Origin: Klebsormidium nitens
Taxonomy: Eukaryota; Plantae; Klebsormidiophyceae
DNA length: 40,928 nt
Assembly (NCBI GenBank): GCA_000708835.1
Contig: DF237624.1
Location: forward strand, 6,138-47,065
Direction: 5' to 3'
Below the pieces are notes generated by a model. It saw only the letters and a list, made by a program, of their open reading frames with translations, did not search any database and was not told the origin of the DNA. The position numbers and the translations under genes are program-made. Below, piece after piece: positions 2,352 to 23,800 of this stretch. The number at the start of each line of letters is the position of its first letter. Positions within the stretch are counted from its first letter, which is position 1.

Positions 2352-2965
2352 CTGCACGTGTCGACCACGGAGTTGTCAACACGACCTGACACACTCTGAG
2401 GAAGGAAATAGGCCAACGTTCTCAACAAAGGTTGGCTATGCAGTGGCCTCTTGTTTCGAACGTGTCGATTCCACTGGCAACCAGCTCCGAATGGTAGGTA
2501 AGCGTTCAGAAATTTGTGTATACGGCCTGAAATTGAAAGCTTGCAGCCCTGCGTTGATCTTAGTGCGTTGATCTTAGAACAGACACGTGCCATTAAATAG
2601 TGGTCGCAAATGCCTTGAAAGGAGGACACGTGACAGGAGGACACGTGACAGGAGGACGATCGTCAGGTTTTGCGCACACACTTATGGCAAAAAAAGAAAA
2701 CCTGGTGGGAAAAAGGAGCCCTGGCAGTAGGTGGGCGCCAAGGAGCGCCCGCTGATACAGCACGCAATCATGAAAATAGACACATGGTACAAGAAAAGCT
2801 CCTTGTAAAGGTGAGCGCCCCGGAAGCGCCGCAAGTCTCGCAACACGTTCCATGTTGTCCCCAATTTTCGCCACGTGGGTTTGCGGCCGAAACCAGAGCT
2901 TGCCAACCTAGCAGATTCTGAAAGCTTGTCACATCACAATACCTACTCATTTGGCGACTACTTAC

Positions 2966-3491: not shown

Positions 3492-3789
3492 CTGCAGTAC
3501 AGCACGAAGGCAGCTGATTACAAGCGCATTCGTGCCAAAACTAAGTCGCCCTGTCAAAATGTGAGGAGGAAGCCGAGAAGAAGGTCAAGACAATTCGTCA
3601 ATCAGAGGAAGCCTTGCACTGTCGTGCTGCAAAAAACCGTGTGCATCAAAGGCAACGAATCCCCTAAGCTTCACAGCTGTTGAGAATCGAAAACGAGGAG
3701 TGCGCCTCAAGCAAGGTCCTTCATTCTGCAATTGTGAAGGCCGCGCTTCAAGAAAAGACTGCTCAGACTTGCCGCAAAATCCACAGTTT

Positions 3790-3864
3790 GTACCAAGAAC
3801 GCTGTATTTACTTTCTTGAGAATCTAATGGGCCTCTTCTAGTACATCCTGCGGGTATGGCCGGG
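3790..3864 (-). repeat. Solitary family-A cassette, inverted, in the intron between the AEP and Zn exons
   Basis: gtaccaagaac...ttctagtac followed by tatggccggg, the reverse complement of the array unit. Confidence 0.8.
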
Positions 3865-3997
3865 TAGCCCATCAAGCGCAAAATCCGCTTCGAAGCAGGA
3901 AGGGCCGTATAAATTCTGAAGAAGTAACAGGCCTGAGAGAAGAACCCTGAGAGATGACCGACCTAGCGAGTGGCGAGTGTGGATCTTGGGCGCTCAC

Positions 3998-4874
3998 CTC
4001 GGGGGGCTCCAGCCAAGTCACCAGAGCGTCCTTCCAGGAATGGGCCGGATCGATGTACGACAGGACGCTCTCCGGCTTCTCGACCTTGGCGCTCCCCGGC
4101 GTCCGCCACTCGCGGTCCTTTGTGTACACGTTCAGGTCGATGAGAGCCGCGACCGCAGGATCAAACTGAAGCGCCCTCTTCTTGAGGCGCCTCGCAAAGT
4201 GGAGAGCCCCCTCAGTGTTGGAGCCGAAGACAAGTTGACGGGGAGACAGCTGGTTGATCGTGAGGTGGAGACTGAACTTGGTCTGGCCCGGGCTCTCGAT
4301 CCAGACGAAGCTGCTCGGATGCAGCTCACAGTCGTACTGTTCCTTGAAGACGACACCGGCCCACTTCTCAATGATCCGAATCACTTCCTCCGCCCCGTAC
4401 CTCTCCCCATCCTCAACCACCTCCCCGTCCGCTCCGACCACCGGTTGGCGCCTAAAAGGGAGTCCGTCCGTGCCGTCCAGATCGAGGTAGGGTTTGCAGG
4501 GCTTTCCGTTCTGGATGATCTCGGTCACCGACCCGTGCCGCCCCTCTAGATGCGACCGCGCTGTCTCCCAATCGGGGTACGAACCGAAGCTGCGCCACGG
4601 AACCCTCACCCCGTCTACGACCGCGCCGGACCACTTGTGCAGGACCACCTGCGCCTCGTGGTTCAAGAGCGCCGCCTCCTGCTGCATGAAGAACTTTGGG
4701 CCGGGGAGGCGGCCCCTTGGGTTGGCCCCTCTCTGATGGAAGCAGTTGGTGCCGTGCTCCCGCACACGCAGCACCCGGAACCCGTCCTTCTTGAAGACCT
4801 CGTTGCCAGTCAGCGGGTCAGAGTGCACCGCAGGCTCAGGCACCGCCGCAAGGTCCTCGCGCGCCACTGGAGGT
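3998..4874 (-). CDS. Archaeo-eukaryotic primase (PrimPol/NCLDV-herpes primase-like) domain, left copy
   Basis: Motif I PCKPYLDLD, motif II KFSLHLTI, motif III LIDLNVYTKDREWRTPGSAK. GC-rich exon with clean splice sites. Confidence 0.85.
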
Positions 4875-5285
4875 CTGCATAAGCGATGTAGGAACATTCA
4901 AAACGCTGCAACACTGGCTTGCCTTCGACCGTGCTCATGAATGAGTAAAACGTCAAATTTCCTGTGCAAGTGACACTTGTTGAGATAAGTTTATGTTAGT
5001 GGACGGGTTTGTGGTGCGCCAAAAAGCCTCGCTGACCATGCCTCTCCAATTACAGAGAATGATTGAGGAAGCAGATTCTGAAGCACCGCAGCACTCAACG
5101 AGCCGGCCGACCTTCTAGCAATGCACGCGGATACATGTCGGCAAAGAGAGGATGACAGACTTATTCCTCGGACATGTTGGATGGCAGATACTGGCTGATG
5201 TACACTTTGCACCATCCGAGTGATACAGATTTTCGACAGGGTATGGACGGCCCCAGCTTCCGACCATCCAGCGCACCATGGGGAT

Positions 5286-5368
5286 GTACCAAGAAACGCT
5301 GAATTACTTTAAAAGATTCTAACGGGTCCTTTCTTGGTACACCTTCAAGTTGCAGAGTATGGCCGGCC
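5286..5368 (-). repeat. Solitary family-A cassette, inverted, in the intron before the AEP exon
   Basis: gtaccaagaaa...tttcttggtac (perfect 11-bp inverted repeat) followed by tatggccggccc. Confidence 0.85.
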
Positions 5369-5490
5369 CAACTTTTAAGCATCCAGCGCACCCTGCAGAC
5401 ATCGGGCAGCCCAAGATAAGTGCAAGTAAACTGCAAACCCCACTGAACCTACAAAGTTTAGAACAATCTTGGCAAAGGGTAGCTACTTAC

Positions 5491-5774
5491 ACAGAGGTCG
5501 CTGGCGCTTCATCCGGGGCTCGCCTCCTCTGCATCTCCCTCCGCATGGGCGCTAGCGCTAGCGCCTCATCCAAGGTCTCGTCCCCCTCGAGCCGAGCTGC
5601 CGCTTCCTCCATCTCCATCTGCCGGTACAGATCCCGCATTTCAGCGTCCGGCACCGCCGAGTCGTCGATGCCCCGGTCATCCTCGGATGTGGGCTCTTCG
5701 TCGGACTCGGTCTCGTCTGATGTCTCTTCGATGTCGAAAGAGGCACCCTCTTGATCAGACGTCGCGGCAGCTTC
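5491..5774 (-). CDS. Acidic low-complexity exon upstream of the primase exon
   Basis: GC-rich D/E-rich frame (EETSDETESDEEPTSEDD) with a ttgcag acceptor. Its phase-2 gtaagt donor matches the phase-2 acceptor of the AEP exon. Confidence 0.6.
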
Positions 5775-6111
5775 CTGCAAGGAACGCCAACGGATCAATT
5801 CATGGACGCTGCTCAATTGCGGTCGGCAAAAGCTGGCAATAGGGATCTGCTCGCAGAGAATGGTGAGCCCAAGGCAAAACATGCCTGGCGCCGGGTTCGG
5901 CCTGATCATGCCTCACTGCCTCTCCTCAAACGCGCACGCAGCATCCCGGTCCGTATCCTAGTACCGCTAGGCGCCGGAGAGCTCTCCCTGCTCGGGGCCG
6001 TCCTCTTCCGACGCCCGACCTCCTGCATCCAAGCATCAGGACACTCCCGTTTCAGTGCAGGGCTCTCCTGAACTTAGGGAAACACCTCGGCGCTCAAAGG
6101 TCATCATAATC

Positions 6112-6651
6112 ATGGGCTGTGAAACCGAGTTCACGGGCAGCTTCGCTCTTTCACGCCCTCTGACCGCCGAGGAGAGCGCAATTTTGAAGGCTGTGCACGA
6201 CTACCGCCCTCAGGATGGCTTGAAGCTACCCTCTGCGGCTCCGGGTCAAGAGCGCCCGGTCAAGATCGTGCGGAAGGGAGTCAACCCCTACTACGGTGGG
6301 GAGGGATGGCACATCTTCAAAGAATTTCCCTCCTTCGACTGCCGTTGGACCGTCTCACGCGACAGGCGCGCACTTGTCTGGGACGAGAAGGGTCCCTTCT
6401 ACAACTACGTCAGCTGGCTCGAGTACCTCATCTCCCATTTCTTTGCGGTCTGGGGAGTACAGCTGAGCGGGACCGTCACGTTGAGGGGTAACTGTTTGGG
6501 CGACACGGGGTCAATCGCGGTGAAAGGCTACCAGATCTTCGTCAAGATGACCCCAATCGTGGCAGTGCGTATCGCTGAGGAATCATACGACTACCCGAAC
6601 GAGGCATTTTTCGACTACACAAAGGGGGAGAGACTTTTATACTCACCGTAG
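6112..6651 (+). CDS. Intronless hypothetical protein of a phage/bacterial-type family, tandem copy 1
   Basis: MGCETEFTGSFALSRPLT...PSFDCRW...LVWDEKGPFYNYVSWLEYLISHFFAVWGVQLSGTV. It closely resembles the adjacent paralog. Family assignment is from recall and is unverified. Confidence 0.7.
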   Translation: MGCETEFTGSFALSRPLTAEESAILKAVHDYRPQDGLKLPSAAPGQERPVKIVRKGVNPYYGGEGWHIFKEFPSFDCRWTVSRDRRALVWDEKGPFYNYVSWLEYLISHFFAVWGVQLSGTVTLRGNCLGDTGSIAVKGYQIFVKMTPIVAVRIAEESYDYPNEAFFDYTKGERLLYSP

Positions 6652-6836
6652 GCGCAACCTCAGTAGCAACGGAGCGAGGCTGGCTGTCAGAATGCGGGTC
6701 GCTGCTGGAAGGGCCCGTCTCCTGCGAGACAACGAGGGGATGAAGGGTTCAGGGACAAAGGGTCCCGCGGACGATCCGATTTCGACCATGGACACAGGCT
6801 TAGGGAAACGCTTTGGCCCTCTTAGGGCATCGAATC

Positions 6837-7301
6837 ATGGGCTACGACACAAAGTTCACCGGCCGCTTTGCCTTTTCCCGCCCCTTGACTGCCGAAGAGA
6901 GTGCGACCTTGGCAGCAGTGCACGAACACTGTCACGAGGACGACCTAGAGCTACCTTATGTAGCTCTTGAGATTCGCCCAGTCAAGATCGAGCGAGAGGT
7001 GATCAAGCCCTTGTATGTGGGCGAGGGCTTCGACTACTTAACAGAAAAGTTCCCCTCTTTCTACTGCCAATGGACGCTGTCACCCAACAGGCGAGCTCTT
7101 GTCTGGGACAAAGGGGAAAAATTCTACGATTACGTGAGCTGGCTCGAATACCTCATCTCTCACTTTTTCGCCGTATGGGGAGTGCAGCTGAGCGGGACTG
7201 TCAAGTGGAAGGGAGTCAGTCGGGGCGACAGGGGTTCGATCAAGGTCGAGGGTGATAAGATTCTTGTCAAGATGCCTCTAGCCAAGAAGGACTCACCGTA
7301 G
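6837..7301 (+). CDS. Intronless hypothetical protein of a phage/bacterial-type family, tandem copy 2
   Basis: MGYDTKFTGRFAFSRPLT...PSFYCQW...LVWDKGEKFYDYVSWLEYLISHFFAVWGVQLSGTVKWKG. Upstream (ttagggaaac) and downstream (ctcaccgtag...) flanks are shared with copy 1. Confidence 0.75.
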   Translation: MGYDTKFTGRFAFSRPLTAEESATLAAVHEHCHEDDLELPYVALEIRPVKIEREVIKPLYVGEGFDYLTEKFPSFYCQWTLSPNRRALVWDKGEKFYDYVSWLEYLISHFFAVWGVQLSGTVKWKGVSRGDRGSIKVEGDKILVKMPLAKKDSP

Positions 7302-7439
7302 GTGTCCGCTCTGTAGCAGCGGGACGGGGATTGCTGGTAGGATGCGGGCCGCTGAAGGAGGGGCCTGTGACCTGCAGGACAAATGAAGGCAAGGGGCTTA
7401 GGGGCAGATCGAGTAGAGTAGAGAAGGCAACTTCAAACG

Positions 7440-7839
7440 ATGGAATGGTACAACGATGACGGTGCGGTCCGTTTGACTGAGCAGATCAAGAGTGCCTTTG
7501 CTCTTGGCGCCATCACGGACCCAGACACTCTAAGGGCAGCATCGATCTTTCACGATGTAGCCGCATGTGCAATCACACGCCTCTGCAGGAAAGAGCACGT
7601 GCATCGACTTGAGGGAAATATCCTGGCCGTGGCTATTTCGATGGTTCATGCAAGCGGGGGGTTTCGTGGCCTGGTCGATCGACGATGTTAGTGAATTCTT
7701 CGACGAGTTTCTGAACAGTGAAGTGGGCAGATTCGAGGAGTTCAAAGGCCAGCTTTCCAAGCGCATATGCCGCGTGGCGATTGAGGAATGTAAGATACTC
7801 GCCTCCCGGGCGACGCCTGGCGCAGTGAACGGCTCTTGA
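7440..7839 (+). pseudogene. Possible ~130-aa orphan ORF split by a 1-bp insertion in a G6 run
   Basis: ORF 7440-7691 joins the frame of ORF 7567-7839 (SGGFVAWSIDDVSEFFDEFL) if one G is removed near 7655-7660. No recognisable domain. Confidence 0.3.
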
Positions 7840-8312
7840 CCCTGCGGGTGACCCGCTTGCACTGCCGAGAGCGCCATCGCCTCTGCCACCCAGTTCGGAT
7901 TCGATTGCTGAGTGAAGAAAGGAGTGCGCAAAGAATCAGGTTGCGATCAATCGACTCCTCACATATGCCAGCTCTCAATACGGATGGGTGCAGATGAATG
8001 GGCGTGCTCAATGACAGCATCTCACACATGTGGGACCACGACAGCGACTGGAACTCACGCTTGCTTGCCACGTAGCAAATGGCTCGGTGCTGACTGGCTT
8101 TGACCTGACGCTTTCCTGAACCTCCTGCATGACATGGATTGCCAAATTATTCGTCATACTTGAATCACCCGGTCTATATCGACACTTTGCGGATGCCCGT
8201 GAGAAGGGGCATGGTGATTTTGGGGAGTGGCACTTGTAGCCTGGCGGTACTTTGTGTCATCCTGGGATGGAGGCATGAGGCAGAAAGCAATTTTTGCCTG
8301 CAAATAACTCAC

Positions 8313-8425
8313 CTCCGCGGTCGGAAGCTGAATCAGGGGCCGCCCGCGTGAGCTGCTCGGGGCGTTGGGGTCGTGTGTGGGCCACCCCGGGTTGCTTTCG
8401 ATGCCCCCGATCATCAGTTGTGTCA
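8313..8425 (-). other. Exon with a degenerate 2A-like sequence (V)TQLMIGGIESNPGWP
   Basis: Direct translation. It has the same splice phases (1 to 0) and a similar preceding exon end (SKSRALI vs SKSLI) as the NPGP exon at 22510-22565. Confidence 0.7.
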
Positions 8426-8799
8426 CTGCATCGCACCAAAGGGATCCCTCAATCAATCGTGCTCAGAATGGCATGCCCTGAAGAAGCCAGACTCGCGCAT
8501 TCAAAGTTTGATCGTGCCCAGAATGGCAAGCCTTCAAGTCGGACCCGTGCATTTGCTGTCTTATCAGCAAAGCCACTTGAAGCCTCTGCTTGCCAATGAA
8601 TGCTAGAGATCTGCCACCATACCTATTAGTGCCCTGCTCTTTGATGCCGAAGAGTAGTAGACCTTGTCCGACCCGCACTCGTACGCTGGAAATCCTGCGC
8701 GAGCAGAACGTTGGCAGGTAAGATTCAAGAGACATGCCACAATTTCAGCGGTTCTTACAAAGACAAGGCTCGCGGCGCTGCAGAGGCGCACACTGTTTT

Positions 8800-10450
8800 G
8801 AAGGGCCCGGCCATGCCCTGCAAGATGTACCAGAAAAGGCCCATTAGATTCTTTATAAAGTAATATAGCTTTTCGTGGTACACATGGGTTGTGCGCCGGA
8901 TGGTCGGACCATGCGCTTGATGGGCCACTGGCCAGCCCGGCCATGCCCTGCAGGATGTACCAGGAAAACGCCCGTTAGATTCTAAAGAAAGTAATAAAGT
9001 ATTTTTTGGTACACCCTCATTGTGCATCGGATGGTCGTACCCTGCGCTGATTAGCCAGCCCGGCCATGCCCTGCAGGATGTACCAGGAAAACGCCCATTA
9101 GATTCTAAAGAAAGTAATACAGCATTTCGTGGTACACCCTCACTGTGCGCCCGGATGGTCGNNNNNNNNNNNNNNNNNNNNNNNNNNNNNNNNNNNNNNN
9201 NNNNNNNNNNNNNNNNNNNNNNNNNNNNNNNNNNNNNNNNNNNNNNNNNNNNNNNNNNNNNNNNNNNNNNNNNNNNNNNNNNNNNNNNNNNNNNNNNNNN
9301 NNNNNNNNNNNNNNNNNNNNNNNNNNNNNNNNNNNNNNNNNNNNNNNNNNNNNNNNNNNNNNNNNNNNNNNNNNNNNNNNNNNNNNNNNNNNNNNNNNNN
9401 NNNNNNNNNNNNNNNNNNNNNNNNNNNNNNNNNNNNNNNNNNNNNNNNNNNNNNNNNNNNNNNNNNNNNNNNNNNNNNNNNNNNNNNNNNNNNNNNNNNN
9501 NNNNNNNNNNNNNNNNNNNNNNNNNNNNNNNNNNNNNNNNNNNNNNNNNNNNNNNNNNNNNNNNNNNNNNNNNNNNNNNNNNNNNNNNNNNNNNNNNNNN
9601 NNNNNNNNNNNNNNNNNNNNNNNNNNNNNNNNNNNNNNNNNNNNNNNNNNNNNNNNNNNNNNNNNNNNNNNNNNNNNNNNNNNNNNNNNNNNNNNNNNNN
9701 NNNNNNNNNNNNNNNNNNNNNNNNNNNNNNNNNNNNNNNNNNNNNNNNNNNNNNNNNNNNNNNNNNNNNNNNNNNNNNNNNNNNNNNNNNNNNNNNNNNN
9801 NNNNNNNNNNNNNNNNNNNNNNNNNNNNNNNNNNNNNNTTGTGCGCCGGATGGTCGGACCTTGCGCTTGATGGGCCAGGCCGGCCATACCCTGCAAGATG
9901 TACCAGGAAAAACGCCCATTAGATTCTTCAGAAAGTAATACAGCGTTTCTTGGTACGCCTGGATTGTGCGCCGGATGGTCGGACCCTGCGCTTGATGGGC
10001 CAACCCGGCCATACCCCGCAGGATGTACCAAGAAACGCCCTGTAGATTCTTAGAAAGCAATACAGCACTTCTTGGTACTCGAGTGCTCCCAAGCTGCTCC
10101 GCGCGCTGAACAACCACACACTGTTTAAGGGGCCAGCAGGGTTAACCAAGAAACGCCCTATAGATTCTTAAAGAGTAATACAGTATTTCATGGTACACGA
10201 GCCCTCCCAGGCTGCTCCGCACGCACACCCCGACACACAGTTCAAGGGGCCGGCCATACCCTGCAAAATGCACTTGGCCATACCCCACCAAAAGTTTGAG
10301 GGGCCCCTGCCAGCAGCCATACCTTGCAAAAACGTATCGAGAAACGCCCATTTGATTCTTAGGAAGTAATACAGCCTTTCTTGGTACACACCCCCGCACT
10401 CTGCAAGGCATCGCACCGTTCTGAGGGGCCCGACCAGACGTACCAAGATG
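8800..10450 (+). repeat. Tandem array of family-A inverted-repeat cassettes (~123-130 bp period), interrupted by an assembly gap
   Basis: Each unit has a CCGGCCATRCCC leader plus a ~55-bp core GTACCARGAAA...TTTCYTGGTAC. Cores at 8827-8881, 8957-9012, 9080-9135, 9900-9956, 10025-10078, ~10142-10196 and ~10334-10387. Confidence 0.9.
9162..9838. other. Assembly gap inside the family-A tandem array
   Basis: Run of N flanked on both sides by repeat units. Confidence 0.99.
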
Positions 10451-10899
10451 TACCAGAGAGGGCCAGGAATCTGATGTTTGAGGTGGGAGATGCAGGCATC
10501 TGTCACGAGGGGGCGCGCATGAGTCTAGGTAGTCGAAAGGGCGGGTTTGCCGCTCACCTTGGAACGCGCTCCTCACCAGCACGCTCCTAGTGGCAGTGGG
10601 CTGTGCCGCAAACGTGGCGCTCCTGCGTGACAGCGCGCACAGACCCTCTGCGCGGTGGACGGGAGGCTGCCCGGGCTGCGCCTCGTCACTGGCGGCGTGC
10701 TGATGGCAGGCTGCGCCAAGACTGCAGTCCGACTCAGAGTGGTCCCCAGTCGCACAGCGGGGGCCAGTGGTTGGGTCCAGGCTGTCGTTGACGTCGCAGT
10801 CAGCGCGCGCAACCCCTACAAGCGCTCGATGGGTCAGAAATGTTGGTCACGTGCAATCGACCGGGCGCCAAGTACCCTGCTCGAGACACTGCCGGCAGC

Positions 10900-12950
10900 C
10901 CGGCCATAACCCCCATGACGTACCAGGGTTCAAATTCTTAAGAGAAACACGCCACCTCCTGGTGACATGCTGATGGCGCGCTGGCCCGACCACACCCTCA
11001 AGGATGTACCGGGAAAGAGCCTTCAGATTCTCAGAATAAAAAGCAACTTCCTGGTTCGTGCTGCTGGCGCGCCCCGATTCGTGCTCGCAAGTAACAAAGG
11101 TCGGCTCCCATGCTTCGCGCCGTCACTGAACCAAGGCCAGGGAAATGCAGTGCAGCACAAGGGACTGCAAAACGCTCACCTTGCGATCTGCTGAGCACCG
11201 GACGACGGCTGCTCGTGGCAGGAAGCCGCCCCGGCCGGAGGTTGTTTGACGGCGCGCAAAGGCCCTCACGTGCGGGGCGCTGCGCGTACTGCGCCTCGTC
11301 GTTGCTCGAGCTGGCGGCGGCGCGCTCGTGCTGTGAGGGGTCCAGAGTAGGATGAGTCGCGGCAGCGGCGGAAGGCTCGTCTGCATGGCGCGTGCCGTGA
11401 ACGCCGGTGCCTTGAGATCCTGCGCACGATGTCTCGTGAATCTCACATGATCCGCCCCAAAGATCAAGAGCATGCAAGCTGTCCGCCCGTGACCGGCAAA
11501 GACGCCACTATGTGGTACATGCTCATGGGGCTGCGGGCCCGGCCACAACCCCCAGAATGTATCAGAGAGCTGCCTAGTAGTCTCTGAAGAAAGATTGAGA
11601 TGATCTTTGGTACACTTCATGAAAGCTGCAAGCCCAGCCATACCCCCAAGAATGCGCCCGGCCATACCCCGCAAAATGCACCCGGCCATAACCTACAAGA
11701 TGTACCAAGAAAGGCCCAATAGATTCTTAGAGAATAATACAGCTTTTCTTGGTACACAACCCTTCTCTGCCCCGCATGCGCCACACCGCACAAGGGGCTA
11801 GCCATACCCCGCAAGATAAGTGAACCAGGAAACGTGCCAATAGATCCTTAAAGAAGAAAACAGCATTTTCCTGGTACACTCCCTTTTGTCGAAAGTCGCA
11901 CACCGGCCATACCCTGCAGAATGCACCCAGCCGCACCCCCCAGAATGTACCAGAAAACGCCCAGAAGATTCTTAACAAACAATACAGCGTTTCTTGGTAT
12001 ACGATCGTGATGAGAAGCAGGGTTGGTGTACCGAACAACGCTCTTCCTTGGTACACTGCTTTTGGGGGCGCCGCATCAAACCTCTTCAGATGAACCAAGA
12101 ACCAACCTTCTGTGTTCAACATCACACCTCCAGGAGTTATTGGATGTCGCGCAATCACTTTCGATCTGCCAGCCAGGGTGCAAGCTGATGGGCGCTTGCC
12201 TCAGTGATTTCTCATGTGACAATCTCGGGCGCTCACCTGCTGCTGCGATCCATGACTGAGGAACAGCAGATGACCCAGCTCCCTTCTGCAGCTGCTCGCG
12301 TTTAGGACAGGCATGGTTTGCCTTCCTTCGCGCCTTCTCGCGCCCCTGAACCCATGCTGCAAAAAGAAGAGGGTAGGGTCAGCGCGTGCGCTGGTGGGCC
12401 TGCAGCCGTGCAAAGACCTGCACGATTCAAGGTCGGGATGCGGGATGCTCAGACACGATCGAGATGTGTGTGTGTCTCGGAACCCTTACCTGCACGGTCG
12501 CTGTCGATCTTGAAACATCCCTTTGATGGCCCGTGGCTATCGCAGAAGTATGCGACCGCCCCTCCCATCTTGCCCCCGCGGAGCCCATACTCCGCGGCCG
12601 TCTCGCACTCGCGGCAGTAAATGGCATGCGGGTCTAAAAAGAAGAGAAGAAGAAGACTTAGGGAATCATGCAGGCACAGGACCGATTCCAACCCACCCCC
12701 CTGCGTACAGGACCGGCCATACCACCAAGTTTCGGCGCTGTACCAAGAAACGACCCATTGATATCTAAAGAAAGAATTGGCCAGAACATGGTACACCTCT
12801 CAACACAAGCCCGGCCTGCCTTCAGACTCTGGCGCCATTGTTACGTTTTAGGGCACGCCAAGCCATGCCACTCAGTTTTGGCGTTGTACCAAGAAATGAC
12901 CCATTGATATCTTTAAGAAACAGTTGGTCAAATCTTGGTACACCTCTTAA
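10900..12950 (+). repeat. Further dispersed and degenerate family-A cassettes in introns
   Basis: Copies near 10920, 11005, 11570, 11702-11755 (perfect 11-bp inverted repeat), 11822, 11946, 12028 (short), 12740 and 12885. Confidence 0.85.
12490..12633 (-). CDS. EsV-1-7-like Cys/His-rich finger exon, left module
   Basis: CRECETAAEYGLRGGKMGGAVAYFCDSHGPSKGC fits a CxxC...A.YG...Y.C..H pattern. The 144-nt exon equals the paralogous exon 21698-21841 in length and phase. Confidence 0.6.
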
Positions 12951-13886
12951 CCCAAGCCCAGCCATGCCACGAAGAATTTCCAGAAGGTTCTGCTGATCGA
13001 TTGTGATGAACGATGATCAATCCGCCGTTGTAAAGAATACCCTTCCTGAAACAATTGTATGTTCGATAGGCTGATGTCCTGCTCTTCATCAAAGAGTGAA
13101 ACACAATGATCCTTAATCCTCCTGCTTGCGAGCCAGCAACCGAGAATTCGCTGACCTTAAGAGCTGGCTTTCGAAGAACCAAACAAACGGTCTTTTGCTC
13201 ACCGCGTCCTGCATCCCAATCCAAAGCTTCTTTGAGCACCCGCGCACTGTGACGCTTTGCTTTCTGATCAGCAGCGCTGAAGCGCCGACCTCTTGGAATT
13301 CTGCGAGCAGGCTGCCCTTCATACTCTACCCCTTTTAAGCTCTTGCACCGCCGCCGGCGAGGGACAGGAATGTCATTGCTTCGCGAATCGACAGCAACGA
13401 TTAGAAACTCCTGCCTTTCTGCACTAATTGTGATGCGCTCCCTGTACTCTGCGGCGCGCGCAAAGCGTGCAGCCTGGCAGACCCTGTGATCAGACTTGAC
13501 CCTGCCACAAGGCCGGCTTGTCGCCATTTTCTAACAAGCACTAGCTCCGCTGGTCACATTTGCAACCACACGAAAGAGAGGTCTGAATTGCCCACAGCGA
13601 CTGAGGCACAATTTAACTCAGAGCAGACCCACAGCTTCAGAACAGAGCACAATACTGAAGTGTCAGAGCAAGGCACATTGTTTGCCCCCAAACGCTCAAG
13701 CAACTCCAGAGACATGGTAATGATGGATTCTAACTCCCAAGTAGGAAAGGCTGCCAGCGCAATCACTTACTCCAGGCCTGAAACGACTTGACCACTTGGC
13801 GCTTGCAGCTCCGCCCGGCAGTTGCTATTAGTATTTTACTCAGCTTTGCATGAGGCAAGTTGCAGCACATTGGCAGCTGGAGACTA

Positions 13887-14176
13887 CCGTAGTCCAACGT
13901 AATGATTCCGAATAAATAAATAATTATCTGCGTTCGGAAAGTCAGAAATTCGGATTTCCCATTCGGAAAGTAGAATTTCGGAAAGGTAAAATAACTTTGA
14001 AATAGTCCTCGGAAGCCGTAAAACTGCCAAAAACAGCCGAAAACTCCCCTTCCAAGTCAGACCATAGGGCATTCGGATTCTGGTCGGAATCAGCATACAT
14101 AATTCCACTTATTTGGTCGGATTGTTGGAAAATAATTTGAAATAAAATCGTTCGGAATCATCACGTTGGACTACGG
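13887..14176. mobile_element. Non-autonomous MITE, Tc1/mariner(pogo)-type, 290 bp
   Basis: 26-bp TIR CCGTAGTCCAACGT(A/G)ATGATTCCGAA with one mismatch. TA on both sides (13885-86, 14177-78). AT-rich interior with repeated TTCGGA/TTCCGA motifs. Confidence 0.9.
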
Positions 14177-16430
14177 TACATGTGTTACCTATGTGACATA
14201 GAAGTGGCAGCGTCCGTGGATTGGACCCGGGAACGGTCTGAAGTGGTAATGGTGCGCATAAGGTCCCGCCCTTATGGCGCATAGGCTATGCTCGAGGGGC
14301 TGACCTGGTAGACTGATTGTAGGTGACGCGAATCGGTGCACGCGCGCACTCAGGGGCGCGTTGCACAACTGCTTGAGGAACGCGCATGTGAGCTCGCCAC
14401 CAGCCATGGACGTCATTGGAATTTCATGGACGACCCATGTAAATGAATGGAGGGCTGGGCCACGCGTAAGCCGGGCTGCATGCGCCGTAAGAATTGGAAA
14501 TATGATATGGCACATGGACACCAAGCCGAGTTTTAATCCACCCACACTCTCCGCGTGGCGCAGAATTGGCGGGCCCTGCATGTATACGAGTATTTTGACA
14601 AATATTGCACGGCACACCTGCCAAATCTATGCGATGCCCGTAGAGCCGTATTGCGCCGGCAAAAAACATCACAGCCTCCCTGCAACATAGGCTACATACC
14701 GGCATATAAAGTTGAAATGGAGCCATACGCTCAAGCTCTGCCTTAGTTCAAGAACACGATCACACAATAGCGCCAAGTTGCATTGGCTGGGCAGGACAAT
14801 TTACTACACATGCATATCTCTTCTATCGCGATATAGCTTGTGAACATCATGTAAACGATCGACTTATGCATGCTTGTAACTAGCTCTGGTCTAAAGTGCA
14901 TAAGCAAGCAAGCAGAGGCCCATACTGTATCGATATTCAGTGTCACCAGGTTCACTTTTCTCTCACTTTCACTTGGATGACCCAGATTTGCCAGCTTCAA
15001 AATGGTGTAATAGGAGCATGAGGTGCCCCAGATACCCTAGCCGAATACAGTGGTGAATTGCAGGCACAATGACTATATGCAAATCATGCACGTGGAGCTG
15101 CTTCAGATTGTACAGAAATCGCCAGTTGCAGGAATGAAACTTTTCATCAAGGTAAACTCCAAAAACGAGAATCTGCAGAAAGATATCCCCCAGAATTGCT
15201 CACAAGACGAGCAAAAGTATCCCTACCAATGCGCCACACCCGGCCCATTAGAAGCGAAGCGCAGGGGCCGTTGGGTCGGGTGTGGCCCCGACGAAGGCCC
15301 CACCTCACCCCTTACCCAGCACTGATGGGACCAAGAGCATGCATTGCGGCCCTTGACAGTTCTCGCTGGTACCAGCCTAGCTTCCCCCCCGCTTCCACTT
15401 GTCCACCAGTCCTAGCCTTGGATCTAGATCGCCAAACGCTATTTCAATGTGATGGTGTGCAACAATTTGTACAGACCCTGCTTGTGCACGTGAGCTCCCC
15501 AGTTGCGCTGGCTTTTGCTTGATGTATGGGGAAAGCCCACCCGCGACCAGACCACCCGGGACGATGTAGCAGAAGGCCATCTTTACGGACTCCAGCTCTG
15601 TGTCGCCCAGCCACGGCTTGACGTTGCTGATGTGCATTGCCGTTTGGCTCGAACGTCCATGCTCCTCCGCAGACTGGAGTGTCATCTGAACTTTAGTGAG
15701 GCGCTCCACTGAGCCTGCAGAAAGGCACGATACAAACTCGAACAATCTCAACACGTCTCCCAAAACTGTCGCGGATGCCCGGAAAGTGCTGTGTCGAGAT
15801 GCGCCAATGCAGTAGCGGCAATCCGAGGTTCGTATTGTGATCGGGTTTGCTGACTACATCATGATTCAGCCTGAATTTCGCCGACATCATATCTGGTGTC
15901 AGACCTAAGCGCGTTGTCCCAAAAGATTTTGCGTCAGGCTGGGTCTGGCGTGAATACGGCGACAAGTGAGGGCATGTACCCAAAACCTTAAACCAAACCC
16001 TACCAGTACACCCAGGCGCAGGTCTTCACTGCCCACGGAAAAATCTGGTCACTACGTATTTCCAGAATTTGAAGCACACCATGTGAACCGGAGGAAAAGC
16101 AGACTACCGACTGGTTCGCTTGCAGCCAGCCGGTAACGGGGAAAAAAAGATAAGCTCCGGTGACGTCGCTATCAGCTCTTAGCAGAACATTAGCTGAGGC
16201 GTTGCCTAACATCTGGGGCTAAAAGTTCGTTGAGACCGTCACGGGTGTCTTGAGATTGCTGTAGCTATAGTAGCAACTCGTTAAGGACCTTGTGTAGGTA
16301 AACACGAAGCTGGTCGTAGCATCGAACTTCCTACAGACAGTCAAAGACAGCTTAGCAACACTTTGGCCTTCGGATATTGGATACTGGTTCGACTGGCCGC
16401 CGACAGCAAGTCATGGGCACCAATAGAAGG

Positions 16431-19400
16431 TCATGGCTTTGGATGCTCACCAAGCTGCTGATCTTGCCTTTTGAACACCACGATGGCCATATCCATGGCG
16501 GGGTAGAACGGGGTCCGGGGCACGAAGCAGGCAATCCGTGTCTCCAATCCGCTCTTCTGGAACTCCGTCAACTCGGTCAGGACCGCAGGCCTCTCTGCAT
16601 CGCGCTCAAAGAACACCAGCTTGACCTGCTGCGCATCCGCCTGCTGAAGTACTGCCTTGTAGCCTCCCCCGTCCACGATCGCGCCAATGGCGCAGCGTTC
16701 CGCCAGCAACCCAGCCACCGCTGGTACCCGCTCCCCTTCAAGCTCGGACATCAGAGTGGCCCAAACTCTCACGTCGCTGTAGAAGACAGCCCGGCCTTGC
16801 ACCTGCTCCACAAAGTGCGCAATGGCTTCTCGCACCAGCGGGAATGCTGGCCGCACTTTGAGGCCCTCGACTGCCACATTCCGCAAATCGATGTCCTCCC
16901 ATTTAGTCAGTTCAAAACCCACAAACGAGTCGCTGCAGACCATCTTCATCATCTGAGCCAGCCACTTCTGCACTTTCTGCCCCCCCTCCGCCTTGACCCT
17001 GTCGTAAATCTGCTCCAAGCTCCTGGTTATCTGCACCACCCTATCGCACTCCAAGAACCGTTCCCAGGCCTCCCAGTCACGCTCCGCCTTCTCACTTGTC
17101 TGCTCACCCTCAGCCACCTCCTTCTCGCGGTGCCCTTCCGATTTGATGGCCCCGGCCCCGCCTGCATCTACTGTGCTCGGCCCAGCCTCCTCGAGCGCCT
17201 CAGGGCCCGCAGCCTGCCGAAGCGCTTTCACGGTCGCTTCGTAGGCCTTTCTCTGGGAGGCAGCCGAGTCCGCCTCGATCAAATCCTCCCGGTCCGCCTG
17301 AGCCGCTCTCAAACCCGGTGCGCGCTCTTTGCCCCCCTCCCCACTCTCGCACGCTTCCCCCTGCGCCTCGCCCTTCGTAACGCTGCCAGGCGTTTCTGAT
17401 TGCCGCGCCTCACTGCCCGTGGGCCCGGAATTGAGGGTCCGACCATCTCGCAGGACCTCGGCAGCCCCGATCCCATCATGCTTGCTCAGAGGTTCTCCTT
17501 CCTTGACCGGTTCCAAGCACCGCACTTGAAAAGTTGGGCTTGCACCGAAGACTTTGGGAACGGAGTAGTTCTCCGGAGATCTTCCATGATAGGCCTCATG
17601 CCAATCCGCAAGGCACCCTGCTACTCCCTCCAACTTTTCCATCACAAGCTGTTGGACAGCCGGGGTCGAGCAGTCTGTCCCGTACATGAGATTATAGGAC
17701 ATTTGCTCCTCCTGCACAAGGAGAAGTCTCATTAGACTGTAGTGGGAGGATTCTAAACCCACCCCAATGCAGTGGGGATACCGCATCCTGACCCTGATTC
17801 AAAAGCGTTAGAAGGAGCTTGATCTCAAAGCGTTGGAAGGAGCTAAGGGACTAAGGCCTTACTCGACCTAGCGATGACGCCGTCGGCAGATGCTCTGCTC
17901 ATTAGGTCATCAACTCAAGCAAGACTCCCAGTTCACCAAACTAGAAAGGCCTCTGCCTGCACCCAGACAGCTACTTAACCTTGGAAACACGATCCTTACT
18001 CCACGGAAAATGAGATCTGAATGACCAGACGGAGCCAGATATGCGATCAATTCAGAAGGTGCTCAGATGTATAGAGCATGATCCAGCATGCCTTGATTAC
18101 GTACCTCACTCAGACCACTGTGCACCGGAAACATGCTGGCCAGCTTGTGTAGGGTGTCACTCTCCTTTCTGAGCTCCTCTTCCCCCGCGCTTGTTACCAC
18201 GATTGTTCTGAAGTGATAGAGGCACGCATCCAGCTCCTCTTTGGCCGTTCCCAGCTCCTGGTACTGGTCCAGGCAGAAGAGCAATTCCTCCTCCCGCCCA
18301 TTGAGGAATTCCTTCACTGACTCCATCGAGTCGAGGCTTGCAATCTTGTCTATAATCTCCTCCTCCCCCGAGTATGCCCATGCAAGGGCCTGCTTCATGG
18401 CCTCAACTCTGTCTGCCTTAAAGTACGCACAGTCCAACATGGGGGCCACGCGCTTTCCCGTTCCGTCCAATGCTGCTGTAAGGTAGACGATCAGTTGCAG
18501 AAGGAGGTGCGTCTTGCCAAACCCTGCAGGCCCGTGCATAAGGATCCTCTTCCCACCGCGCGCCAACCCACCGCGCGATAGAGTTGCGTTAATCAGCGCA
18601 AGTGCACGGTCTACGAGGGCCCTGAAATGAGAGCGCCCCATGACTGCAACTCCGAGCTTCTCCTGTGCCTTCACCACCAGAAACCGCATATCCCTTGTAC
18701 CCAGAGGTTCTGCCTGCGGCAGGATGCTCCACCCAGCCTCAAAGACACCCTCTCCCGCTTGTCCGGCCTGCTCGAGCTCAAGCTTCCTTCTTTTTACCAG
18801 ACCCTTTGTAAGAACCCCAATCTCTGCTGTTGCGAAGCATCCTCTGGAGCGCTTGGATTTGGGTTTGAATTGGACACCTGCAGAATGTTAAGCCACTAAT
18901 TAGGTTGATCTTTTCTTTATAAGAGCAGGCTAATCAAGCTTCAATCTAGGTGAACGCCGTTGGAGAGAGTTTGCATCATGTCAATCCCCTCAAGGGAACA
19001 ACTTCGTAAGTAAGCAACTAAGGTTGCACCTGCAGAAATCCTGAATAATGCTGGCAAACATTAAGCTTGCAGAGGGACTTTGCTTGATGACGCTGAACAA
19101 GATCATTCTGACAAGACCTTCCACATGCATACTTAGTGCCACAAATTGAGTTGCAGAGAGTGCCACAAATAGAGATTGCAAGGAGACTTGTTGAGCATTG
19201 CCGTACACCCAGCAGAGGCTGTGATAAATGCTCCTGCCAGGCAACATTATGCCAAACATCCAGCTCAAGAAGCGTGGAAGGGTCATCCTGGCCTAACACT
19301 CCAGAAGCACCCGGGAAGCAGAGGGACATGCTCCAAACTGGCACCAAAACACTGGAGGGTCGGTGAGGATCACTGCATCTATGGTAAACCAGAGAGCTCC

Positions 19401-19838
19401 GGCACTCTGCCCGACCACAGGCATGCACGAATGATGTCGAACAGGAATGACTGTTGTGAGGATTGCAATGACTGTTGTTCTGAAGAGTCAAAAAGAGACA
19501 GCCGCAATGACATGCTCAAGCGCACAGTAGCCTTGCTGAGTCTTTTCTGCCACAGCTTCTCTGCAGATACGATTGGTACATGATCTTCAAGTCAAAAAGG
19601 TTTCAGCTGCTCACCCTTCTCTGCTGCAGACTCCAGGGCGCACACGAGGGCTTCAGGCAGCGGAATCTGGCCCATTCCTCAGGGTCTTCAGTGCTCCAGC
19701 GTTCCTGAGCATCCCAAGCTTAGTGAACCTCCTCCTGATAAGGTTGTCACAGTCATCGTCCTCAAACGCCTCGTACTCAGCAGGGAGTACCTCCTTCAGA
19801 ATTTGCCGCAAGCTTTCTCTCCTTTCCCCCTGTGCCAT
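16431..19838 (-). CDS. Crinkler/RHS-type (CR) effector gene 1: SAM-like header + P-loop NTPase + REase-like C-terminus, possibly disrupted
   Basis: Walker A HGPAGFGKT, Walker B LLFCLDQ, and C-terminal FVPRTPFYPAMDMAIV. The splice 18105 to 17711 is phase-consistent. The header exon (19838 to ~19612) has an in-frame stop at 19653-55 unless frameshifted. The last exon is unresolved. Confidence 0.65.
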
Positions 19839-20077
19839 CTGGTTGTAGACTATCTTCCAGTCTTAATTTCCCAGCTTTGACCTGCAGTTTCCAGGTAGCG
19901 ACGCATCTCTTGCCCCACTCGCAGATGGAAAAAGGTCCTATCGCTCAGGGTTGCACTTGAATTGGGCCGCCCTTGAAGCCACCCCTACTTCTGACGAGGC
20001 GACATTCGCATGGGCACCACTCGCCACTACTGCGGGTGTTTCCTTTTGGCACTGCGTGCCAAGGGCTTGCAAATCAA

Positions 20078-20098
20078 CTAACCAAGTGATTGTTGGCA
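20078..20098 (+). repeat. 21-bp direct repeat CTAACCAAGTGATTGTTGGCA, copy 1
   Basis: Identical to 27037-27057. Both copies are followed ~45 bp later by CACGTGT.CC.CCG. Confidence 0.9.
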
Positions 20099-20806
20099 TA
20101 ATTTTGACCAGTGAGAACCTGACACGTGTCCCTCCGAACAAATATTCCGGAACTTCCTCCAATTCGCTTGAGGTTCGAGCCCAGTCAGGGGATACTGTCA
20201 CCAAGCAGACCGTTCCCATCACAGGACTTCGATAAAAGACGACGTCGTTTGATATTGATTAGTTCCAGCTGAGTCTCCATGGTTACCTCTGGTACCTTTA
20301 AGCGGTCAGCGTTTAGACCTCCTGCTAAGGGTTGACATCGCTAAAAGCGGCCGGGCTTTAGGGAGCTGCAGGGCAGCTTGGTGTGGCTCAGGGCTTTCAG
20401 GTTGCCCGGCAAGTTGGTGCACAGGAAATGGCATTCTGCGGACTGCTGTAGTGGCGCATCTCTGAAGCGCGTCTGAGGATATTGTGAACGTAAGTTGCTT
20501 ATCTGGTTGCCGCAATGCGCACTCGTGATATAGAACAATGTGTCAGGCAGAGGTTGGCTCTGCCGCTTTTGGACCAGCTTGAAGTATGCAACTGAGCGAC
20601 TCAGTCTGAAGAAGGTGGATGCGGTTTTTAAGGGTTGTTCCTCGGGTCTTTGTAAGTCTGCACTGGTGAGAGTTGCATACGCAGTAAAGGGCAAACGCCT
20701 CGAAATTGGTGCATCTGGATGTTTGTTGAGACAAATTATCATTGAGTCTCCTATATTCCTCTTGGTTTTGTAGGGGCAGGAAAGCTGGTCCTTGCACTGA
20801 CTCATC

Positions 20807-23800
20807 ATGGCTAGAGGCCGGCCTCATGGCCGGTCCAAGTCCGATCACAGAGTCTGTCAGGAGGCTCGTTATGCACGAGCCGCTGAGTACAGGGAGAGAA
20901 TCGCCATCAGTGCTGAGCAGCAGGAGGCACGCATTGCTGCTGTGAATGCTAAGTGCAACATGGAGGATGCCCCTTGTAGGCAGCGGGGGCAGAAGTCGAG
21001 GGCGTCGAAGACCAAGGCAGAGGCGGCTCGGATGTTCACAGGGAGCCGTGCTTGCAAAGAGTCTGGCAGTGCAAGGAAGAAAGCAAAGAAGGGCCTCGAA
21101 CATTCGCTTGGCAAAGCTGCAGAAAGAGGTGAGTTCTGGTGCATGGCTTCTCTGATTGGTTTACCTTGTGAAGCCGAGGCAGAGCAGAAGCTTGAATGCT
21201 CTGTGCTGCAAGATAGAAAGGTGACTGGTGGGCTGGTGCAACATGTACGAAGAAGAGCATCTCGGTGTAGATGGCGAGAGAAATGAAGCTGGTACACTAC
21301 TTTGGGTAGTGCGGTCAGAATGGTGAAGGATGGCTGGCTCTGCAGTTAAGAACAGGGTTCTGAGGGGTTTTAGCGTGCATGGCCGTTTTTAGAATGTAAC
21401 AGACTTTGCCTCTTCCTCTTTGGAAAATGAGAGGCTAATTCTTGGTACAGGCTGTCTATCACAAAGTTGTAAGCAGTCTTAGCGGGCATGGCCGCCCCTG
21501 GGGTGTACCAAGCTTTGCCTCTTTCTCTAAGGGATATAAGAAGCTCATTCTTGGTACACGCTGGCACTTACACAAACCTCCAAACCTTCCACTGCCGAAG
21601 AAAGACTGCAAAAGGCTGGGGCATGCACCAAGTCTTGCATGCTTTTCACATCTACACTCCAGGTTCATCACCAAACCCCTGCGCTTCTTCATTGCAGACT
21701 TGCACAGTCTTCACTGCCAAGCGTGCGGCGCAACTGCAGAGTATGGGCTGAGGGGAAGCAAGGAGGGGGGCAGCGTCAAGTACACGTGCAGAGCGCACAC
21801 CACATTGAATGGTTGTTTTCGAGTCGACCGAGACCGCGCAGGTGCGAGCATTCGGGGAGCCTGCTCTTGACATGGTCTGCATGCAATGCAACGCTCATAG
21901 CTGCTCTCCCATTGGTTAGCAGTGGGCTTTTAGAAAAGACTGCCAAGAGATCTACAGCTCTGTATGCTTTGCAGGTTGGGCAGAGGACCAAGAGATGCGG
22001 CGCCTGAGAGCACAGGAGAGGAGATTGGAAGAGGAGCTGCGGCAACTCGGAGGGGCCTCGTTCACTGCAAAATCGACATCAGGTGGGCGTGTGGCGCGAT
22101 CTTTCCTCTCAATGGTGCTCTTGTTTTAACTGCATGGGGCAGTGAGTTCCCTTGCATGCCCTTGCCTCGTCATTGATTTCCTTGCTGTGTAGTGATATGT
22201 GATGCTTTTGTGATGGCTAATGAGTCCCTCCACTGTTCTTCTGCAGCTTGGAGTGAGTCGCAAAGTACGGGGGATGGGGCTTCAGTGCCCATGAGCAAGT
22301 CGCTCATAGGTAAGGCGCTTTGGTTGCGGTTCTGAAGCTGCAATCACTTGTACGGCTGTTGGGCTTGCTCTGTGTTTCAAGCGCTTGTAGCACTTGGACT
22401 AATCCTACTAGACGGTTCTAAAGACTTGCATGGTGGTCTTCGCTCGTGCCCTGATGAATCGAGCTGCTTCCAGCATTTAGCAATTTAACCTGTTGTTTTT
22501 CATGTGCAGCCACACTTCTCATGATTGGTGGTATTGAAGTTAACCCTGGACCTACTGCATACGAGGTGAGCCTGGAAAAGGTATTCTGCAGTTCAAGGAG
22601 GGACTGGTAAGCACTAGTTATACTCGAATAGCAGGAAGCTTCTTCTTGCTCAAAGTCCATGCCACTGAGAGAGCAGGCAATAGATGTTGTACCAATCATC
22701 AATGTCTCTTGACCACAGATTGCACAAAACAAAGAGAGCTGGCTAGGAGCTTATCCGGACATTGACAGAACGCTGCTGGATTACCTGGCACTGAAGAACA
22801 TCAGGTTGGCCAAGTGGAGAGAGTCCACATCCGAGCAGCGCTCCAGTCTTCTAGACCTGTGGGCACGCCGGTACACTGGGGAATGGTTAGGGGACTGGGA
22901 CATGTTCCTCATAGGGGTTCCGGGTAAGCAGCTCCCTCTTCTGAATCAGTAGGCTACCTTCGATGCAATCCGCTTGAGATCAGGACTAGAGGTTTCCATG
23001 AATTCAGAAACGAGGATTTGAGCTTTCCGGTGTTGCTGGTCAGCATGTAGCGGCGGGGAAGCTTGGAGAAGATGGCATGACATGGGCCTTCTGCTGATTG
23101 GCAGTGTTGACAGGTGACACAGTCGCTTCTTTGTCGATCTTGCCGAGGACACTGTTGCATGCTGGGCATGGAGTGTTTCCTAGCAAAAGCGGAGTTGCTC
23201 TGGAGCAGAAAGTGGCCTGCTGTGCAATTGTTGGCAGACCAGGTGCAACTCATGAGCAGTAGGGTGCTTGTCAGCCACCCCCCTCGTGCAATCTGCCAAA
23301 GGCTGGTTCTTCACTTGGCTTGCTGTCTTCGAAGCTCATCCACACGAGACCCGGATCTGCTTATCCTTCTGCTACAGCAGTTGCAAAGAGGGGTCAGGAT
23401 GTAGGAGCGGGCCCATCTGCCGATGTGGAGATGAAGGATGTCAATCCAGGGAACCAAGTTGGTAAGAGCCACTGTTCGGTCTGTATGGTGCAAGGCCTCT
23501 TTTACAAATTGCTTCTGGCAGCTTGTGCTTGCCTCAGTGTGCTGACAATCTCATGTAGTCACTCGAAAGGAGAACGCATTGCTTCTGTATGCAGTACATA
23601 GAGCGCCCCAGCGCAAGGCAACTCCTGACTGCCAGTTTGTGCTTGCAGGCAGGAGTTATGACACGTTTGTTGCCGCACTTGGCGCAAACAGCGAGGGGAT
23701 CAACAAAAGAAGAGCAAAGGGGGGCATCTTCACCCCTCGAATAGAGACAGTCCACAAGATCTTGTCGCGCTTGCAAGAAACGCTGGTGTTGCTTCTGGCA

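Follow-up and report, generated by a model that had tools for sequence, protein, structure and literature searches.

Intronic inverted-box cassettes in a virus-derived primase–helicase gene of Klebsormidium nitens as putative docking sites for its origin-binding domain

The HSV-1 origin oriS has inverted boxes that flank an AT-rich spacer, and residues 536–851 of OBP, the origin-binding protein of HSV-1, form the origin-recognising domain (accessible text of PMC12543377). Baculovirus hr regions, in the accessible text of PMC4535591, are built of 64-bp units with a 24-bp palindrome. The primase–helicases of mimivirus (R8), ASFV (F1055L) and some mriyaviruses carry an AEP followed by an SF2 helicase, with intact AEP motifs (accessible portion of 10.1101/2024.02.29.582850), as do the algal genes described here; for enzymes of the R8/F1055L class, the partly accessible literature yielded no cognate DNA site. 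Here we describe a 40,928-nucleotide stretch of the Klebsormidium nitens genome (hereafter the window), in which the introns of one such gene, gene A, hold most copies of a short cassette with two inverted boxes (family A). The same partly accessible literature yielded no description of these repeats or of this Klebsormidium gene family, although repeat libraries in the supplement of the genome paper could hold them. Judging from sequence, the cassettes are likely to be docking sites, as yet putative, for the origin-binding domain of the helicase that their host gene encodes.

The cassettes resemble HSV-1 oriS and roseolovirus oriLyt in having two inverted boxes of ~9–10 bp around an AT-rich spacer (accessible text of PMC12543377 and PMC4944276), next to a UL9-class SF2 helicase whose C-terminal domain, on modelling of the gene B protein, may be related. 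The box sequence is a different one, herpesvirus Box 1 being GTTCGCAC (boxes as given in the accessible text of PMC12543377). Unlike the few intergenic viral origins, at least 20 copies stand in introns of one chromosomal gene region, and, unlike HSV-1 UL9, the helicase is fused to an AEP primase and encoded by spliced algal genes. Compared with R8 and F1055L, the Klebsormidium genes are intron-rich, multi-copy and transcribed, with long added leaders and the intronic palindromes. Baculovirus hrs share with the cassettes imperfect palindromes set in tandem repeats at several places, but the cassette arms are longer spaced and intronic, and no IE1 or baculovirus-type gene was found among the window ORFs scanned. 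Like MITEs and introners, the cassettes are short, non-coding and intronic, with terminal inverted repeats, and occur in both orientations; unlike MITEs they are without TSDs, form tandem arrays and are confined in the window to related genes, and unlike introners they lie mid-intron, neither spanning the intron nor supplying its splice sites.

The primase–helicase gene housing the cassettes is virus-derived. Gene A encodes a protein of the mimivirus-R8 class, a type with multiple gene copies in Klebsormidium, in which a PrimPol-like primase is joined to a UL9-like helicase; PF02399 scores above cut-off both in gene A and in a second gene of this type, gene B, each with an N-terminal AEP followed by the UL9-like SF2 helicase, and the family profile matches human PrimPol (E 9e-20) and HSV-1 OBP (E 2e-35). 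The AEP exon of gene A is 36% identical to that of a B-type protein (P0009). Gene A retains what we take to be the DxD, His, Asp and Walker motifs, and its leader consists of a basic exon and a Cys/His exon, with a presumably 2A-like motif. Its 3′ end, including the helicase C-terminal domain, lies off the window, and the assembly contains a frameshift near 3260. The leader, whose exons gave no Pfam match that reached cut-off, is joined to a different downstream module in gene D, which appears to continue into a P-loop NTPase unrelated to gene A and to have no helicase (exon chain past 21697 inferred from ORFs only). Leader genes are abundant in RNA contigs. That three cassettes lie in gene D was counted against an origin-like reading.

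Profile searches of the window recovered 20 full or near-full cassettes at 3789–21558 (Table 1), in line with the roughly 20 copies of the preliminary description; 17 are in gene A and three in gene D, and the same search found none in 21.6–40.9 kb. Both orientations are present as had been stated (15 plus, 5 minus), and so are singles (3789, 5285), pairs (10919/11005, 12739/12885) and arrays (with a period of 123–130 bp at 8805–9161), whereas the proposed consensus GTACCARGAAA/TTTCYTGGTAC is matched exactly in three copies only. The arms are TGTACCARGAAA, with inverted boxes of 9–12 bp spanning ~56 bp end to end, and the cassette measures 48–59 bp (53–59 bp in 19 of the 20). Thirteen arm pairs have at most two mismatches, compared with none in any of 30 resamples from a block-wise Markov model, and the best profile match in the reversed window had an E value of 1.2. 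Over the 20 copies, 184 of 240 arm positions are complementary, and the short non-coding unit has the arms as its terminal inverted repeats. The spacer (24–35 bp, AT fraction 0.52–0.70) had been called AT-rich; this holds for its central 20 nt (73% AT vs 47% in the window), but its sequence is conserved and directional, unlike that of generic AT-rich DNA. A leader box had also been described: CCGGCCATRCC, with at most one mismatch, stands directly upstream of 10 of the 20 copies and not of the others, and the single match in gene D is on the opposite side of a cassette. DNA depth is 121 in bin 8470–9136 vs ~18 in apparently single-copy bins, and, since array units border the assembly gap at 9162–9838 on both sides, further copies are probably hidden there.

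Table 1. Genes, cassettes and related features in the window.
Feature	Position	Strand	Remarks
Gene A	1..13527	-	Spliced leader, AEP primase exon 3998-4874, UL9-like SF2 helicase
Solo outer box	1491..1501	-	Downstream gene A intron, inferred from tblastn gap
Family-A cassette, single	3789..3845	-	Gene A intron 3492-3997; inverted copy of array unit (97/120 columns identical to 9855-9970)
Family-A cassette, single	5285..5341	-	Intron 4875-5490; in ~1.5 inverted array units (5239-5414)
Family-A cassette, tandem array unit 1	8826..8882	+	Intron 8695-10557
Family-A cassette, array unit 2	8956..9013	+	
Family-A cassette, array unit 3	9079..9136	+	
Assembly gap within array	9162..9838	.	Probably hides more units (inferred)
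Family-A cassette	9899..9957	+	
Family-A cassette	10024..10079	+	
Family-A cassette	10142..10197	+	No upstream box
Family-A cassette	10333..10388	+	
Family-A cassette	10919..10966	+	Shortened and degenerate; intron 10816-11179
Family-A cassette	11005..11058	+	Intron 10816-11179
Family-A cassette	11558..11614	+	Degenerate; intron 11420-12236
Outer box as 24-bp tandem repeat	11632..11690	+	
Family-A cassette	11701..11756	+	Exact match to consensus
Family-A cassette	11821..11878	+	Clearest CCAGG/CCTGG copy
Family-A cassette	11946..12001	+	
Family-A cassette	12739..12795	+	Gene A intron 1 (12634-13202)
Family-A cassette	12885..12942	+	Gene A intron 1 (12634-13202)
Gene D	20807..26398	+	Leader paralog; exon 1 70% identical to P0013
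Family-A cassette	21244..21296	-	Degenerate third copy; gene D intron 1 (21129-21697)
Family-A cassette	21395..21449	-	Gene D intron 1
Family-A cassette	21504..21558	-	Gene D intron 1; 73% over 60 nt to 12885 copy
Gene B	27900..35869	+	Second AEP and UL9-like helicase; 5′ end approximate
Family-B palindromes, 6 x 52 bp	28119..34528	+	In inferred gene B introns; copies at 28119, 29313 (minus), 29495, 29633, 31428, 34477
Frameshifted recombinase-like gene	39277-40361		

All 20 cassettes are placed mid-intron, with 100 nt or more to either splice site, in introns with GT..AG ends that are bridged by RNA-contig joints (the RNA nature of runs X5, X7 and X11 is a guess, supported by GT..AG joints that DNA run X1 lacks). 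They had been assigned to introns of leader/primase genes, which is correct as to the introns but not as to gene D, which is no primase gene. The pair reported in intron 1 of both leader paralogs is there, oriented alike with respect to the gene in both cases, with a degenerate third copy in gene D (21244; profile E 2.5e-4, the copy itself being included in the model). Between these 569-bp introns of genes A and D, the sole blastn match below E 0.01 is of cassette to cassette, with 11 of 11 bases identical at each end; with the cassettes masked, the introns are 48% identical vs 45.5 ± 1.4% when shuffled, and exons are 60–62% identical. Across the A/D duplication, the arms are conserved better than exons. 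Between groups of copies, arm positions 1–9 show 80–93% identity vs 20–26% for flanks and 29–51% for inner spacers, a difference that is partly one of ascertainment because the copies were found by their arms. RNA contigs of other loci contain cassette sequence at exon-like depth.

Gene B bears a different palindrome family (family B), with arms TGTCCAGGTTTTG, a length of 52 bp in 6/6 copies and no GTAC core, in predicted introns. Within the window, each of the two families is confined to one helicase lineage. The C-terminal part of gene B (35054–35836) is predicted to fold as a winged-helix domain (model pLDDT 91.5). The top match of this model among 48,161 chains was HSV-1 OBP residues 547–832 (9hgi_A), with a modest score that is within the chance range (Z 5.8, 177 aligned, rmsd 7.7); a longer C-terminal model again gave HSV-1 OBP as its top match, and over residues 97–213 most lower matches are to proteins of winged-helix type, RepE and RFX among them. 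The model matches giant-virus origin-binding proteins and the ASFV protein in BFVD at E <0.001. Foldseek against the PDB returned nothing at E 0.001 for either C-terminal model, the Atlas gave no usable match for the domain, and the RVKNL recognition motif was not seen among the 14 C-terminal alignment rows listed. The modelled domain is that of gene B, that of gene A being off the window, which was counted against an origin-like reading.

We tentatively regard the family-A cassettes as paired, origin- or iteron-like binding boxes, specific to their subfamily, whose number grew by local duplication, a reading that may quite possibly be right. It gains support from the UL9-class helicase of the host protein, from the HSV-1 DNA-binding domain as top match of the gene B C-terminal domain, from arms much better conserved than flanks and from the different palindrome family of the second helicase gene; of the case first made for it, the covariation argument fails, and the likenesses to hr, oriS and recombinase sites are analogies. 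Through its predicted UL9-type DNA-binding domain, the virus-derived primase–helicase would recognise intronic boxes of its own gene, with a private box sequence for each subfamily (family A with gene A, family B with gene B). Helicase dimers would occupy both boxes, bending and opening the AT-rich centre, and synthesis primed by the fused AEP domain would copy the element or the sequence around it. Local tandem and inverted duplication would have multiplied the copies, of which redundant ones would decay.

Beyond the window, a metagenome scan found eight intronless relatives of 24–40% identity (close relatives P0022–P0028 were not among the matches). One intronless metagenome relative (L009/L010, apparently one element) has a 122–148-bp tandem array with a 20-bp palindrome directly upstream of the gene; this array, the constrained cassette lengths and the intronic position of 20/20 copies were counted for an origin-like reading. 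Neither family occurs in 12 viral or metagenome relatives (L001–L012), exact-pattern scans of viral contigs gave 0 matches for each family, and viral contigs searched with the L006 protein gave none. Twelve prokaryote pattern matches were rejected as chance, nine looking coding in related Chloroflexota and three having unrelated spacers.

The main alternative, which we consider possible but on the unlikely side, is that the cassettes have no function for the gene and are either an intronic satellite that amplifies locally or a dead miniature transposon. A unit of ~105–125 bp would have spread by slippage and template switching, its arms kept alike by palindrome-correcting conversion or past transposase recognition. 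Many DDE transposons have ends resembling TGT...ACA, and most cassette ends are of this form. The array has tandem units of 123–130 bp, the two singles are inverted array pieces with ragged ends, several copies are degenerate, and in a tree the copies group by neighbourhood; decay and grouping, as expected of neutral local duplication, were counted against an origin-like reading. Summed DNA depth reaches 1044 over the array unit vs ~10–20 in single-copy sequence and 26–296 on exons, and this pile-up of DNA contigs makes dispersed copies elsewhere possible; depth is exon-like in most cassette bins, and the loose ends listed are mostly array-like. However, the ordinary, TSD-flanked MITE that had been raised as the contrary outcome finds no TSD at any of the 20 copies (0–1 nt at the TGT..ACA boundary in 20/20; at most 2 nt in 19/20 over six boundary choices). 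A TA-flanked MITE in the window (13885–14178) has a depth of 1694 vs 12–121 in cassette bins at equal threshold, and the two results together weaken the MITE reading. Against a satellite stand arms that outdo exons in conservation across the A/D duplication and two separate families, each limited to one helicase lineage in the window.

It is distinctly unlikely that the cassettes regulate or silence these genes as RNA, whether through hairpins in pre-mRNA or as precursors of small RNAs. Single cassettes do fold well (z -2.7 to -6.4 in five family-A folds), the spacers of five copies are self-complementary (z < -2 in at least one fold), and cassette sequence occurs in RNA contigs from some loci; yet mean spacer-only z is about -0.5, with positive values in about half of the copies, and the one Rfam-type match, to a miRNA family, reached 32 bits against a cut-off of 100 and does not identify a structured RNA. 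The arms had been said to covary, which the counts do not bear out: permutation gave p 0.32 at the R/Y position (left/right pairs G/A 6, A/A 6, G/G 3, G/C 2, A/T 2, A/G 1) and p 0.06 over all 12 positions, and 122 of 500 shuffles attained the covariation score computed on 19 aligned copies. We rejected covariation of the arms and likewise a general inner stem. Moreover, G-T mismatches exceed A-C (18 vs 5) on the strand antisense to mRNA in 18/20 copies, which are not independent, so that the wrong strand for an RNA hairpin is favoured, and both orientations occur within one gene.

That the boxes serve as intronic enhancers or in autoregulation, with the leader Cys/His domain or a host factor binding them, seems very unlikely. 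SBP proteins bind GTAC and exemplify such a factor, but family B has no GTAC core and the leader exons lack a Pfam family. Family A does occur in both leader-sharing genes, including the non-helicase gene D, these genes are abundant in RNA contigs, and baculovirus hrs are enhancers as well as origins (accessible text of PMC4535591); simple enhancers, we infer, need no fixed long spacing. Highly improbable, finally, are recombination sites for a tyrosine recombinase of the element, at which it would excise, integrate or shuffle exons between paralogs, for although a frameshifted recombinase-like gene is present (P0138, an intact homolog, is placed among Preplasmiviricota clusters, of which the nearest with a name has PF00589 on 16% of members) and the shared leader is joined to differing modules, the boxes of such enzymes are usually 6–8 bp apart, far below the ~33 bp here, the cassettes sit mid-intron and flank neither ORFs nor element ends, and the recombinase-like gene lies ~18 kb from the nearest cassette, has no relevant Pfam match and, searched as P0138, matched no viral contig.

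A broader proposal, which we think rather doubtful, takes these loci for self-copying mobile elements of a new eukaryotic class, in which a PrimPol–UL9 fusion of viral descent has acquired spliceosomal introns and keeps its own replication origins inside them. Each subfamily would co-evolve a private box with its winged-helix recognition domain, and within the genome of the alga the element would amplify both itself and modules that it had captured, gene D for example. Element termini were not found, which was counted against an origin-like reading. If the boxes do not bind, the cassettes are an ordinary local intronic repeat in an unusual gene family. If they do, the natural pairs A/A and B/B make recognition testable by cross-binding, and binding would account for the rise of a transcribed, multi-copy family from a viral replication gene in a streptophyte alga.

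Family A comprises 20 cassettes of 48–59 bp (mean 56), a set completed by profile searches. The exact consensus given in the preliminary description matches only three times, but relaxed searches confirm that the repeats are real and non-random: with two arm mismatches allowed, 13 pairs of arms were recovered, and 0 in 30 resamples of the window. Both orientations occur as described (15 cassettes on the plus strand, 5 on the minus), whereas other elements of that description, which is partly confirmed overall, hold only in part. The central 20 nt of the supposedly AT-rich spacer are indeed 73% AT, but the spacer overall is a conserved directional sequence; 10 cassettes have the leader box immediately upstream of them, and the other 10 lack it there. 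The main array has a 123–130-bp unit with the cassette as its core and with this same box in outer position. Allowing at most 1 mismatch, such outer boxes number 18, all of them inside gene A (primase-helicase) or intron 1 of its leader paralog, gene D. The two solitary cassettes, at 3789 and 5285, represent ragged-ended fragments of this array in inverted orientation.

All 20 cassettes fall in introns, as had been claimed; seven introns are involved. They have GT..AG ends and are skipped in contigs of three presumed RNA runs but not in DNA run X1. Every cassette is at least 100 nt from splice sites, and five further confirmed introns carry no cassette. Cassette sequence is present at high depth in RNA contigs from other loci, so "always intronic" is valid for this window only. 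The host genes had been described as leader/primase genes, which is correct for gene A; gene D has the leader in common with it but appears to continue into P-loop NTPase ORFs, along a predicted exon chain. In its first leader exons and across the AEP and helicase domains, gene A matches P0013, which is 1945 aa long and annotated in Klebsormidium nitens. Named K. nitens proteins make up 10 of 21 matches, so Klebsormidium is the likely host and the primase-helicase family is multi-copy. Its profile matches human PrimPol and the origin-binding protein (OBP) of HSV-1, and one study describes the same AEP plus SF2 helicase architecture for mimivirus R8, ASFV F1055L and some mriyaviruses (10.1101/2024.02.29.582850).

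Features of the window and of compared contigs
Feature	Coordinates	Strand	Remarks
Gene A	13527 to past 1	−	frameshift near 3260 in this assembly
Cassette-bearing introns, gene A	3492-3997, 4875-5490, 8695-10557, 10816-11179, 11420-12236, 12634-13202		joints in presumed RNA contigs
Cassette-bearing intron 1, gene D	21129-21697		joint in presumed RNA contigs
Family B	28119-34528		six 52-bp palindromes
77-bp tandem repeat	686-840		contains short inverted repeat; downstream part of gene A
Paralogous intronless ORFs	6112-6651, 6837-7301	+	antisense within RNA-confirmed gene-A introns; stop codons adjoin host 5' splice sites; match phrog_38666 (E 1e-15 and 4.5e-23)
Motif GG-I/V-E-S/V-NPG-P/W	about 8400-8425; 22520-22550	−; +	between Cys/His leader and downstream module; also in P0004, P0012, P0013; 2A-like peptide motif
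MITE-like element	13885-14178		28-bp inverted repeats, TA at start and end; DNA depth very high
Spliced P-loop NTPase genes	15387-19900; 23549-26398	−; +	NACHT/AAA-like, under Pfam cut-off; resemble Crinkler-type NTPase-nuclease modules
ORF	36117-36650	−	no match in Pfam or PHROG; resembles Bro-N/KilA-N viral DNA-binding domain
Tyrosine-recombinase-like gene	39277-40361	+	frameshifted; intact homolog placed among Preplasmiviricota clusters
L009/L010 upstream array	L009 2030-2860; L010 1065-1890		122-148-bp units with 20-bp palindrome
L006 contig end	13266-13938		perfect 50-nt fold-back plus subterminal repeats
L016 palindromes (bacterial MAG)	1495-1570, 2085-2150		intergenic; family-A-like arms, unrelated spacers

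It is possible, if doubtful, that the cassettes are a local satellite or a dead mini-transposon. At 80% likeness the array unit reaches a DNA depth of 1044, most cassette bins lying at about 9–350, similar to exon bins (26–296); at 95% likeness cassette bins reach 12–121 versus 1694 in the bin with the TA-flanked MITE. Summed depth is not copy number; roughly, it fits several paralogs with one array in each, and dispersed copies may also be compatible. No TSDs were found at cassettes, which fail the tests run for the MITE and introner classes.

The intron-1 paralogs of genes A and D (569 bp each) give a single blastn match under E 0.01, cassette against cassette, with 11/11 bases identical at either end; with cassettes masked, identity is 48% versus 45.5% shuffled, and exons are 60–62% identical. 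Between groups of copies, arm positions 1–9 are 80–93% identical and flanks 20–26%, partly through ascertainment. The proposed covariation of arms did not hold up (R/Y position, p 0.32; score reached in 122 of 500 shuffles), and inner stems are seen in a minority of cassettes. Box sequence and spacing are kept, not base pairing, and protein binding to double-stranded DNA thus fits better than a hairpin; an RNA hairpin is unlikely. The cassettes might also be an enhancer to which the leader domain or some host factor binds, which we consider quite improbable, and recombinase sites are very improbable.

Gene B, the second primase-helicase (AEP about 36% identical to that of gene A), has its own palindromes, family B, confined to it and with arms different from those of family A. 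Five coincide with gaps between tblastn exons, and the sixth sits within an intron predicted from splice-like ends; the copy at 31428 has both arms changed. Neither family was found in the other's gene, and two involved introns occupy similar places in genes A and B, directly after the AEP exon. Both families are absent from all 12 viral or metagenome relatives compared. In L009 and L010, apparently one element, the intronless relative has immediately upstream of it a tandem array that is palindromic but unrelated; the L006 end, directly after a primase-helicase gene, resembles a linear hairpin-ended replicon; and the likeness of the L016 palindromes to family A is treated as convergence. In titles and abstract openings, no description of these palindrome families was found.

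Two models of the gene-B C-terminal domain (pLDDT 84.7 and 91.5) both had HSV-1 OBP as top structural match among 48,161 chains, at a modest score (Z 5.8), with the alignment covering the OBP DNA-binding domain. Foldseek against BFVD matched giant-virus origin-binding proteins; against PDB it did not find OBP. The OBP DNA-binding domain binds inverted boxes flanking an AT-rich spacer at HSV-1 oriS (PMC12543377), as does the corresponding domain at roseolovirus oriLyt (PMC4944276). The cassettes are like oriS and baculovirus hr in anatomy, though not members of either class. In the C-terminal domain, the basic hairpin of A-type P0013 is unlike that of the B-type proteins, as altered specificity would predict. 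The most likely reading, which we hold tentatively, is that the cassettes are putative binding sites of the element's own UL9-type domain, made of paired boxes specific to each subfamily.
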